Sequence record: PZ154896.1
DNA length: 64,000 nucleotides
Direction: 5' to 3' (one strand)
Source: a phage
Shown here: positions 3-35,992 of the stretch, one piece after another
How positions within the stretch are numbered: the first letter of the stretch is position 1
How the letters are laid out: each line of letters begins with the position of its first letter
Notes under the pieces: generated by a model
What the model was told of the DNA's origin: nothing
What the model saw: only the letters and a program-made list of their open reading frames with translations
Database searches by the model: none
Made by a program: the position numbers and the translations under genes

Positions 3-2320
<2,318 letters not shown>

Positions 2321-32789: not shown

Positions 32790-32807
32790 GGGAGACCGAA
32801 GTCTCCC
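32790..32807 (-). terminator. tetraloop terminator after the 59-aa basic ORF
   Basis: GGGAGAC-CGAA-GTCTCCC; UUUUG on - strand. Confidence 0.6.
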
Positions 32808-32812
32808 TAAAA

Positions 32813-32992
32813 TTATGCAACAACCTTTCCAAAACGAGAAGCATCATCTCGAAGAACTGCACGTGCTCTGCGCATGATCTTCTCAACTGTTTGATTAATA
32901 CGAGAGTTCGACCCACGCTTGTATCCAGCGCGTTTAGAGGTACCATCAACTTTCTTTTCAACTGCTTTCTTTGCTTTAGCTTGTTTTGCCAT
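32813..32992 (-). CDS. small highly basic protein (below ORF-track cut-off)
   Basis: 59 aa hand-translated (MAKQAKAKKAVEKKVDGTSKRAGYKRGSNSRINQTVEKIMRRARAVLRDDASRFGKVVA); tetraloop terminator immediately downstream. Confidence 0.45.
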   Translation of the reverse strand: MAKQAKAKKAVEKKVDGTSKRAGYKRGSNSRINQTVEKIMRRARAVLRDDASRFGKVVA

Positions 32993-33357
32993 TATAAATT
33001 CTCTTTAATGAAAATGCAGGACTTATTGACATTGCCTGCGCAAGCCCTCAAGGGGAACATAGGTTTTCGGATATTTAACGACAGGATAACCATAAACCCG
33101 TCATCATACCTTATAGCTCTTATCTGTTGCACACCGTTAGCTTAAAGGTTCCGGGTTCGATTTCTCGAGGATAAGATATATACTGATGGATATATAGGCC
33201 TTTAGGCGTACTCCCGATTGGCCATCACCTCGGGGTAGCATGCACTTGCCGCTATAAGAATAACATTCAAGAGGTACACCGTAAAACTGCCGGGGTCTTA
33301 AAACTATAATGATTCGCAAATCATTAATCAGACAGTTCGACGGCTCCTCGATTTAAC

Positions 33358-33606
33358 TTACTTCAGGGTAATAACAAAATGACGAACTGCTTTACGTGCG
33401 GCAGAAGCCAGAGGCTTAGCATATTTCAATTCATCTTTCTGGACCAGGATATCGCGAAGATCGGCTTGTGCTGGATTCAGATGTTTGAAATACTGTAAGA
33501 TTTCAAGAGCTTCGGCTTCAACATCAATAGATGCACCGTAATTGTCATGGCCATTATTCCATGCATGGCGTTGCAGTTCAAGAGCGTGTTGTAATTGTTT
33601 AATCAT
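33358..33606 (-). CDS. rIII: rIII lysis inhibition accessory protein
   Basis: 82 aa as in T4 RIII; synteny adjacent to gene 31. Confidence 0.85.
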   Translation of the reverse strand: MIKQLQHALELQRHAWNNGHDNYGASIDVEAEALEILQYFKHLNPAQADLRDILVQKDELKYAKPLASAARKAVRHFVITLK

Positions 33607-34429: not shown

Positions 34430-35000
34430 AAAAGTTTCGGATTTGTTCCCAATTCAGGGAACGAAGATTATTACGAGAGTACTGAATTACTTCAATACCG
34501 GCTTGTTTTAGAATGTCTGCCCAATTTTCAGGAGATCGATCGTATAATTCTGCGTATACAACCTTTTTAATACCTGACTGCGTAATAGCTTTAGTGCAAT
34601 CAGGACATGGAGAAAGCGTCGTATATAACGTAGCACCTTCAATAGAATTACCTTTACGAGCTGCAAACAAAATTGCATTCAATTCTGCATGGATTTCATT
34701 ATTAGCAGACCATGCACTATGAGCGGCCCGATGTTCTTTAGCCAAAACAAAATTATCCACCCGTCCAAATGCTGTAGTGCCTTCTTTATGTCCAGCAACG
34801 ATGACCGGGCTTGGTTTATTCTTCAACCAACCGTTTTCGGATGCATGTTCACAACAGTTAACGCCACCTGCTGGTGAGCCATTATATCCAGTAGAGATAA
34901 TGCGTCCATCTTTTTCAATGACGGCACCAACTTTCCATGAACAACATTTTGATTCTTGAGAAATCAGATATGCAATCTGAAGGTATGTGCTAGCTTTCAT
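34419..35000 (-). CDS. cd: dCMP deaminase
   Basis: 193 aa; zinc-binding HAE and PCxxC motifs; synteny. Confidence 0.93.
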   Translation of the reverse strand: MKASTYLQIAYLISQESKCCSWKVGAVIEKDGRIISTGYNGSPAGGVNCCEHASENGWLKNKPSPVIVAGHKEGTTAFGRVDNFVLAKEHRAAHSAWSANNEIHAELNAILFAARKGNSIEGATLYTTLSPCPDCTKAITQSGIKKVVYAELYDRSPENWADILKQAGIEVIQYSRNNLRSLNWEQIRNFCGE

Positions 35001-35992
35001 TATTGAACCTTATTAATATAAGTTAACAGCTCTTTAGTTTGTTCCCAACCGATGCACGCATCGGTAACGGAAACGCCATAGGACATATTATCAGAAATTT
35101 TTTGATTTCCTTCATGTAGGAATGATTCTATCATAATTCCTTTGACAAAATCATTAGCTGCTAAATTTTTACCAATACCAATTTGATTGCTATAATACCC
35201 ATCAGCGTTTGCGTGGCTACAGTCAACCATTACATAATGATTCAGACCTAATGCACTTGCTTTGTTAGAAGCTTCTTGAATATCAGAAGAATGATAGTTC
35301 GGGCCGTTAGTCCCGCCACGCAATACGATATGCGTATTCTGATTACCTTCAGCTTCAACAATGCCTACAGTACCATCGACGTCCATACCCATATACCGAT
35401 GAGGCCAGGCGGCACTATACATCGCGTCTGTAGCTACTTTAATAGAACCATTGGTTGCGTTCTTGAAGCCTACGCACATCGGTAGACCTGAAGCAATTTC
35501 ACGATGTGTCTGACTTTCAGTCGTACGGGCGCCAATAGCAACCCATGAGAAAATACCAGAAAGATACTTAATCGTGAATGGGTCTAATACTTCAGTTGCT
35601 AATGGAAGTCCCATACGTAGAAGTTTACGACACAATGTTCGTGCAACTATAAGACCGTGGTTCATATCAAAACTTCCGTCAAGATATGGATCATTTACAA
35701 GACCTTTCCAACCTACGGTAGTTCGAGGCTTTTCAAAATAAACGCGCATCACTAACAGAACATTAGGAAGACGAGTTTGAAGTTCAGCCAGACGTTTGCC
35801 GTATTCAACAGCAGCAATAGGGTCATGAATTGAACAAGGACCTACAACAATAAGTTTGCGTGGGTCTTCACCGTTCATAATCGAATTAACTTGTTCGCGA
35901 TGAGAAGCCACTTGTGATGCGTAAGCTTCCGACAAAGGAATAATCTCAGCCAGTTCTTTTGGAGAAATAAGTTTTCTGACGACAGGTAACAT
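35000..35992 (-). CDS. 3-deoxy-7-phosphoheptulonate (DAHP) synthase, class I AroG/AroF-like
   Basis: 330 aa; GPCSIHD, KPRTTVGWKGL, GARTTESQTHRE, DCSHAN motifs align along the length with E. coli AroG; SD AAGGA; stop overlaps cd start (TAATG). Confidence 0.9.
   Translation of the reverse strand: MLPVVRKLISPKELAEIIPLSEAYASQVASHREQVNSIMNGEDPRKLIVVGPCSIHDPIAAVEYGKRLAELQTRLPNVLLVMRVYFEKPRTTVGWKGLVNDPYLDGSFDMNHGLIVARTLCRKLLRMGLPLATEVLDPFTIKYLSGIFSWVAIGARTTESQTHREIASGLPMCVGFKNATNGSIKVATDAMYSAAWPHRYMGMDVDGTVGIVEAEGNQNTHIVLRGGTNGPNYHSSDIQEASNKASALGLNHYVMVDCSHANADGYYSNQIGIGKNLAANDFVKGIMIESFLHEGNQKISDNMSYGVSVTDACIGWEQTKELLTYINKVQ

Follow-up and report, generated by a model that had tools for sequence, protein, structure and literature searches.

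Comparative analysis points to a conserved structured RNA between genes rIII and 30.9 of T4-type phages

The gap between rIII and 30.9

What occupies the 365 bp (positions 32993-33357) that separate the minus-strand genes rIII and 30.9 of this phage? The window, the whole 64-kb stretch of DNA that was analyzed, is a T4-like genome segment of the Tequatrovirus type, and the gene order rIII-30.9 is likewise annotated in T4 and its relatives. The original prediction had described the gap as an ORF-poor island that could encode a small structured RNA, serve as a regulatory region, or be the scar of a lost mobile element. Its limits were correct: rIII ends at 33358, the 59-amino acid gp30.9 starts at 32992, and the gap between them is non-coding, with no conserved ORF. 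The only ORFs in it are a 60-amino acid TTG ORF (33137-33319, minus strand), upstream of which no Shine-Dalgarno sequence could be read, and a 46-amino acid GTG ORF (32992-33132, minus strand). A promoter scan called no minus-strand promoter within the gap, and a strict terminator scan called no terminator there, the hairpin GCAGG..CCUGC included. In the direction of transcription, the gap and its flanks contain the following features.

33358..33606, minus strand: rIII, the upstream flank (PHROG 1457, E 1.1e-41; also annotated as rIII in relatives)
33264..33357, minus strand: rIII-proximal non-coding module with an AT-rich hairpin (minimum free energy -25.9 kcal/mol; z -2.89; none of 200 shuffles folded as well)
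33110..33258, minus strand: the core, a predicted structured RNA of 149 nt with P1 as its closing helix (covariance model match of 190.7 bits, RNAalifold structure, covariation, and cross-genus identity)
33069..33107, minus strand: hairpin module H (AUGAUGACGGG..CCUGUCGUUAAAUAUCC), with compensatory stem changes and a conserved loop and 3' tail
33039..33058, minus strand: conserved motif GUUCCCCUUGAGGGCUUGCG, an invariant block in alignment A1 that occurs once in the window
32993..33040, minus strand: terminator-like hairpin GCAGG..CCUGC (33017-33040), then AUUUUCAUU, then the 30.9 ribosome-binding region (read from the sequence and fold)
32813..32992, minus strand: gene 30.9, the downstream flank, encoding a small basic protein (PHROG 1427, E 2.4e-31; same place in T4)

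All three inverted repeats to which the original prediction had drawn attention are present, but none of them forms the structure of the core. Two lie in the flanking modules, namely GCAGG..CCUGC and the AT-rich hairpin TAATGATT-CGCA-AATCATTA (33307-33326, within the rIII-proximal module). The arms of the third, CTCGAGG and CCTCGGG, had been taken for a pair; they are not partners in the fold, where one falls in P4/P5 and the other in P2b.

The flanking modules are distributed independently of the core. The rIII-proximal module is retained in T4, Mosigvirus, and Dhakavirus, and module H, a hairpin that may have its own role in protein binding or processing, persists in core-less T4. The motif GU(A/U)CCC(C)UUGNGGG(G)CUUG is found 3' of the RNA both in the rIII-30.9 gap (window 33039-33058, minus strand) and at the uvsY-uvsW locus described below (L128 1697-1716; L130 1610-1630; L124 ~1130-1150, minus strand), and it is also kept in T4 and RB16, both of which are core-less. 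The gap spacers have the appearance of mosaics, assembled from small hairpin modules that are shuffled and common to two loci. When the window was searched for a second copy or a repeat family, the GUUGCC..GGCAAG hairpin of relatives gave only a chance-level match.

Several other features of the neighborhood were recorded. A 23-nt module, AGGTGATTCGCTACCTTAGTGCG, is identical at 22 of 23 positions in Mosigvirus LH01 (L121 ~667-689, just 3' of the rIII stop) and Yersinia phage JC221 (L124 ~1160-1185, minus strand, just 3' of the RNA), two loci that are otherwise unrelated and non-coding; T4 carries a variant, and the window lacks the module. Just 3' of the 30.9 stop, the window has a terminator-like hairpin capped by a UUCG tetraloop (GGGAGAC-UUCG-GUCUCCC, 32790-32811, minus strand). 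On the rIII side, a 330-amino acid DAHP synthase (35000-35992, minus strand; Pfam DAHP_synth_1, E 2e-74) adjoins the dCMP deaminase gene. This shikimate-pathway enzyme is not among the T4 genes in the stretch shown beyond cd and is likewise annotated in phage NHEP29.

Fold, strand, and family of the predicted core RNA

The original prediction had named comparison with the orthologous region of related phages as a check, and this comparison was decisive. We aligned 20 and later 28 homologues and obtained a consensus of 44 pairs, on which pair statistics were computed for the 26 distinct sequences. Pairing was canonical in 98.2% of the resulting cells, and 29 of the 44 pairs showed compensatory changes on both sides. 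None of 500 shuffles matched the observed pairing values, and when the partners were slid by 1-3 columns as a control, pairing fell to 26-42%. The single-sequence fold of the gap center was no better than chance (z -1.63, with 12 of 200 shuffles as good), so the case for structure rests on covariation. Judged from these alignments, the center of the gap is a conserved, strand-specific, non-coding RNA fold, and the structured-RNA option of the original prediction thereby gains strong support.

In the consensus model, P1 closes a four-way junction of P1-P4 with zero linker nucleotides, and P4 leads into a three-way junction with the GNRA hairpin P5, helix P6, and the joiner J6/4. The covariance model finds a single copy of the core in the 64-kb window, with the following elements.

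33251..33258, minus strand: 5' strand of P1, CUUAUAGC, pairing with 33110-33117 (GCUAUAAG); 5 of 5 modeled pairs change on both sides
33197..33250, minus strand: P2 arm, supported by covariation, with a GGC/GCC helix, an invariant internal loop, and a long hairpin GCUACCCCGAGG..GGGAGUACGC
33177..33196, minus strand: P3 hairpin UAUAUAU-CCAUCA-GUAUAUA; 4 of 7 pairs compensatory, e.g. U-A to C-G
33118..33176, minus strand: P4 arm, UCUUAUCC / GAUAAGA, enclosing P5, P6, and J6/4; 5 of 7 P4 pairs compensatory
33157-33168, minus strand: P5 hairpin UCGA-GAAA-UCGA; 3 of 4 pairs compensatory
33131-33156, minus strand: P6 with loop GAACCUUUAAGCUAA; 2 of 5 pairs compensatory
33125-33130, minus strand: joiner J6/4, GCAACA, with an invariant GCAAC part

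The helices have changed extensively. P1 alone occurs as AUAGC/GCUAU, UAAAC/GUUUA, UGUAG/CUACG, and other variants across homologues, and 8 of 10 pairs of helix 3 in the P2 arm are compensatory. Within this changing framework, ~50 unpaired nucleotides, located in the P2 internal loop, the P6 loop, and J6/4, do not vary across subfamilies whose helix sequences are wholly different. The 8x6 internal loop of P2 places AAGNGCAU opposite CUNANG, with loop nucleotides that are invariant at both locus types; the P6 loop comprises 15 nt, of which GGA-CC and GCUAAC do not vary; and the 20-base stretch GCUAACGGUGNGCAACAGAU of the P4 arm is invariant in every rIII-30.9 copy. The P5 loop is a GNRA tetraloop (GAAA or GUAA) in most rIII-30.9 copies and has lost this character in the uvsY-locus copies.

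Tertiary contacts were sought in the same data. An all-against-all covariation search of alignment columns for pseudoknots was dominated by the difference between the two locus types and gave no usable signal, and a possible AAGG:CCUU loop-loop contact had no covariation support. An 11-nt GAAA tetraloop receptor suspected by eye in the P2 internal loop was rejected: it is not canonical, and the P5 GNRA loop is lost at the uvsY locus.

The alignments also discriminate between the strands. Read as antisense, 58 G-U cells become A-C mismatches and the canonical share drops from 98.2% to 93.2%; the alifold energy of the alignment is -40.5 kcal/mol in the sense orientation versus -27.0 in the antisense one. 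The orientation of the element is that of the adjoining genes at both loci. From this comparative evidence, the predicted functional strand is the minus strand, the same as that of rIII and 30.9. The plus-strand string GGTTCGATT is the complement of P5/P6.

Some depositors have annotated a small protein-coding gene here, with hypothetical proteins of 49-67 amino acids placed over the element in NHEP29, CLB_P2, and Mineola, and the window itself has the 60-amino acid TTG ORF. These annotations are not credible because at least one stop codon interrupts each of the six frames inside the element in all 26 distinct homologues. No conserved open frame remains, the annotated ORFs vary in length and limits between phages, no Shine-Dalgarno sequence precedes the TTG ORF of the window, and the substitutions follow the pairing of the helices instead of the periodicity of codons. 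We regard a coding function as having next to no probability.

The search for known RNA families that the original prediction had proposed returned none. ARAGORN reported no tRNA or tmRNA gene in the whole window, and this class was rejected. At gathering thresholds, Rfam 15, whose 4227 models cover ribozymes, riboswitches, Y RNA, 6S, and group I introns among others, gave no match. At E <= 10, no match fell inside the core, whether we searched 1 kb or the core with ~10-15 nt of flank; the latter search matched only C/D-box-like AUGAUGA strings in the flank. The only weak matches in the 1-kb search came from the hairpin at 32790-32811 and corresponded to the terminators at the ends of unrelated sRNA families. 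Comparison with Escherichia coli 16S, 23S, and 5S rRNA, both for similarity and for antisense complementarity, gave z values between -1.3 and 1.8 and thus no significant resemblance. No host copies or spacers were present in 5,426 E. coli genomes, and two pattern scans of 185,579 bacterial and archaeal species, with one genome each, produced one chance match, which the covariance model rejected. A full-text literature search by topic and by sequence found no description of the RNA. The family thus seems to be new with respect to the catalogues searched, a comparison that excludes the more than 10,000 unnamed candidates of PMC10690425.

Conservation, genomic contexts, and empty sites

The region is matched by ~1,000 phage records. 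In Jiaodavirus, Kanagawavirus, Moonvirus, and further phages that infect Klebsiella, Enterobacter, and Citrobacter, the central part of the gap (query 125-259) shows 91-95% identity; the gap flanks of these phages can no longer be aligned by blastn, and the element still lies between rIII and 30.9. Nucleotide identity of the core between genera is 94-98%, compared with 66-89% for the rIII, 30.9, 31, and 30.8 coding sequences of the same genera; the rIII protein is only 75.6% identical to that of the Klebsiella phages. The core is the best-conserved sequence of its neighborhood across at least eight genera, whose hosts include Escherichia, Klebsiella, Enterobacter, Citrobacter, Salmonella, Serratia, Edwardsiella, and Yersinia. 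Besides selection, recent exchange among co-infecting phages could partly account for this degree of conservation. The lysine- and arginine-rich gp30.9 shares 88-98% identity with its counterparts in four other lineages, among them some whose rIII is 67-76% identical, but only 55-65% in others. It accompanies the RNA at the rIII-30.9 locus but is also encoded by T4, which lacks the RNA, so no link between the two is established.

Three genomic contexts were found. In the rIII-30.9 gap, the core lies upstream of module H in Tequatrovirus, Dhakavirus, and Moonvirus and downstream of module H in Jiaodavirus and Kanagawavirus. The third context is a second locus, where homologues scoring 79-91 bits lie 3' of uvsY and uvsY.-2 on the same strand in Slopekvirus (phiEap-3, CPRSB), Pseudotevenvirus Citrof4, Yersinia phage JC221, and two metagenomic contigs. 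In Slopekvirus and Pseudotevenvirus, the RNA faces the convergent genes uvsW.1/uvsW and ends ahead of a strong bidirectional terminator, with no same-strand gene downstream. In JC221, a 39-amino acid same-strand ORF is annotated ~220 nt beyond the RNA. A metagenome scan returned near-identical T4-like copies only and no new context.

The JC221 locus (L124 960-1640, minus strand) also stands out in its own right. Between the uvsY.-2 homologue and the gene annotated next to it, ~680 nt contain the RNA and many hairpins, with at most one short conserved ORF. JC221_170, a coding sequence annotated on the opposite strand over the RNA, is probably spurious.

Empty alleles exist at both loci: T4 and Mosigvirus lack the core at rIII-30.9, and RB16 lacks it at the uvsY-uvsW site. 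At the rIII locus, the covariance model detected no core in T4, Roskildevirus, Acinetobacter phages, or an Aeromonas phage. The T4 site is missing exactly the stretch from P1 to P1 and a few bases, the filled junctions reading GAATGTTATT|core|GTATGATG and the empty one GAATGTGAATGATG; a direct reading of these junctions disclosed no target-site duplication. The core thus behaves as a self-contained cassette, inserted in at least three contexts and absent from several alleles; it is modular, dispensable, and not tied to any single neighboring gene. The notion of a scar left by a lost mobile element has to be inverted: the window carries the intact element and T4 the empty site. No transposase or endonuclease was found in the annotated neighborhoods, and no partner protein co-varied with the RNA across the two loci.

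In Mosigvirus LH01 (L121) and SA79RD (L122), an unrelated ~50-nt cassette, ..CTATCACGCGTCAGAAAAAGGTTATCTGTCTAAGTCGTGG.., occupies exactly the core site, where T4 is empty.

Possible functions and comparison with known systems

The stop codon of rIII directly abuts P1 in Moonvirus CF1, and no minus-strand promoter was called in the gap; the RNA is therefore most simply part of the transcript of the upstream gene. One point against the model favored below is that some phages have a -10-like sequence in the AT-rich 5' strand of P1, e.g. TGTATAAT in L047; a transcript that started from it would lack P1. That ~50 unpaired nucleotides have been kept while the helices around them changed argues for a specific partner (a protein or ligand) or for catalysis rather than for a mere barrier to nucleases. 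Such covariation and invariant loops in a 149-nt fold are normally the sign of a specific molecular partner, and this consideration favors an autonomous, stable RNA with an accessory role. Any function must be accessory, since T4 and many relatives manage without the element.

On balance, we consider it somewhat probable, as a model, that the core is an autonomous structured RNA, probably stable, that derives from the rIII-containing transcript and binds a protein or small ligand. The RNA would be made within this leftward transcript, cut free from it as a stable species, and act autonomously. Its invariant loops would bind the protein or ligand, and it might contribute an accessory function such as host takeover or counter-defense, which are the usual roles of patchily distributed phage cassettes, without controlling 30.9. 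We infer action in trans by exclusion. A bolder version, which we put forward only tentatively, is that the RNA represents a new functional class, either a decoy or inhibitor with which T-even-type phages neutralize an immunity protein or some factor of the host, or else a ribozyme or ligand-binding RNA of a new kind, that moves between phage genomes as a self-contained cassette. If this were true, a mobile RNA of a new class would explain the patchy distribution, the three insertion contexts, and the extreme conservation of the loops.

The fold could instead be a compact cis element of a polycistronic mRNA, either a barrier to exonucleases or to scanning by RNase E or a signal for processing, and would thereby determine how stable the message of the upstream gene (rIII, uvsY.-2) or the downstream message is. 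A dispensable element with no evident promoter of its own, always placed in the sense orientation right after a gene and in transcribed spacer rich in other hairpins, would fit such a role. We nevertheless think it unlikely: a simple barrier would not need ~50 invariant unpaired nucleotides across subfamilies, the position of the core relative to neighboring modules and genes is not fixed, and a different gene precedes it at each locus. A further conceivable model is a new class of catalytic RNA, self-cleaving or not, that cuts the transcript between genes. Complex junctions and invariant internal-loop nucleotides are typical of ribozymes, the position is intercistronic, and T-even phages encode end-healing and RNA-ligase enzymes. 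However, the core alone matched no Rfam ribozyme at thresholds as lax as E <= 10, no candidate for a cleavage site emerged, and nothing in the results points specifically to catalysis, which makes this model very improbable.

A regulatory region had also been envisaged by the original prediction; for the core, a role in the regulation of 30.9 found no support, as the same RNA occurs where no gene follows. In the most explicit form of this role, the core would be a riboswitch or protein-binding leader that uses the terminator-like hairpin at 33017-33040 to govern 30.9 and the 30.x genes. The multi-junction fold and invariant loop nucleotides are what such a leader would have, and in the window the core does lie in the 5' region of 30.9, upstream of the hairpin and a U-rich tract that abuts the 30.9 ribosome-binding site; gp30.9 is itself basic and highly conserved. 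This model is hard to reconcile with the copies at the uvsY locus, the variable spacing, and the intact 30.9 leader of core-less T4. The Slopekvirus, Pseudotevenvirus, and JC221 copies sit at the end of the uvsY operon, the first two directly facing uvsW.1; T4 retains the hairpin as well as the leader; module H intervenes between core and hairpin in some genera and not in others; and an unsystematic look revealed no alternative pairing between P1 and the hairpin. Together, the three contexts and the empty sites argue against a leader or riboswitch, to which we give very little credence as a model, and for an autonomous, dispensable module.

Mobility by itself could suggest a selfish, MITE-like DNA cassette of no benefit to the phage, with P1 (CTTATAGC...GCTATAAG) as terminal inverted repeats and hairpins that act as DNA. 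Presence/absence polymorphism with break points at the ends of P1, three insertion contexts, near-identical copies across genera, and the presence of a different ~50-nt cassette at the same Mosigvirus site are all in keeping with this idea. Seven internal helices, however, covary with strand-specific G-U pairs and GNRA loops, which indicates selection on RNA. The element also shows no target-site duplication, has no transposase or endonuclease nearby, and is present once in the 64-kb window and once in each genome region searched. A purely selfish cassette thus appears highly improbable.

The autonomous RNA that we favor would matter for several reasons. T4-type phages are among the most intensively studied viruses, and the RNA has seemingly been overlooked, probably because T4 carries the empty allele. 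Many carrier phages are in use or have been proposed for therapy. Ready controls exist in nature, as some carrier phages hardly differ from non-carriers in other respects, and the function is thereby directly testable.

Among known systems, bacterial RNase P RNA offers a superficial likeness. Its specificity domain has a four-way junction, and the core shares a 10-nt identity, GUGCAACAGA, with J11/12 of E. coli M1 RNA. This string and CAAGGCC, both reminiscent of M1 RNA, had prompted us to consider mimicry of the specificity domain, which we rejected: similarity to the real rnpB was not significant (reached by 25 of 300 shuffles, z about 0), no Rfam RNase P model matched, the helix order differs, and only GUGCAAC of the string is kept in the uvsY-locus copies. 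Riboswitch aptamers and 5' leaders likewise combine multi-helix junctions with invariant unpaired nucleotides, and in the window the core precedes a gene and a terminator-like hairpin as they do. It differs from them in lacking a conserved downstream gene and, seemingly, a conserved expression platform: the same-strand gene 30.9 follows at one locus, and only the convergent uvsW.1 at the other (Slopekvirus, Pseudotevenvirus).

PeSL elements of T4-type phages resemble the core in behavior. Arbiol and colleagues reportedly described them in 2010 as mobile regulatory cassettes of ~50 bp composed of an early promoter and a simple stem-loop. Like them, the core is a short non-coding cassette that shuffles between T4-type genomes, in a spacer that is a mosaic of such modules; unlike them, it has no minus-strand promoter and a complex fold of 44 covarying pairs. 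The rnaC and rnaD RNAs of T4 (119 and 139 nt) are also small T-even phage RNAs on the early-gene strand, annotated as stable with no function given. They lie in the tRNA cluster and are present in T4, which is without the core, and they show no covariance-model similarity to it (best score 5 bits, E about 1, in an unfiltered full-model search of the T4 tRNA region).

Structured-RNA candidates from phages and bacteria have been catalogued in bulk, with more than 10,000 left unnamed (PMC10690425). GOLLD, ROOL, and other Rfam motif families are similar in kind to the RNA described here, being likewise phage-associated, defined by covariation, and endowed with conserved loops, with no ORF and no assigned function. 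The novelty that we propose is meant at the level of the RNA family and not of mechanism: relative to these orphan motifs, the core matches no Rfam 15 model and has a size and fold of its own, 149 nt organized around a four-way and a three-way junction.
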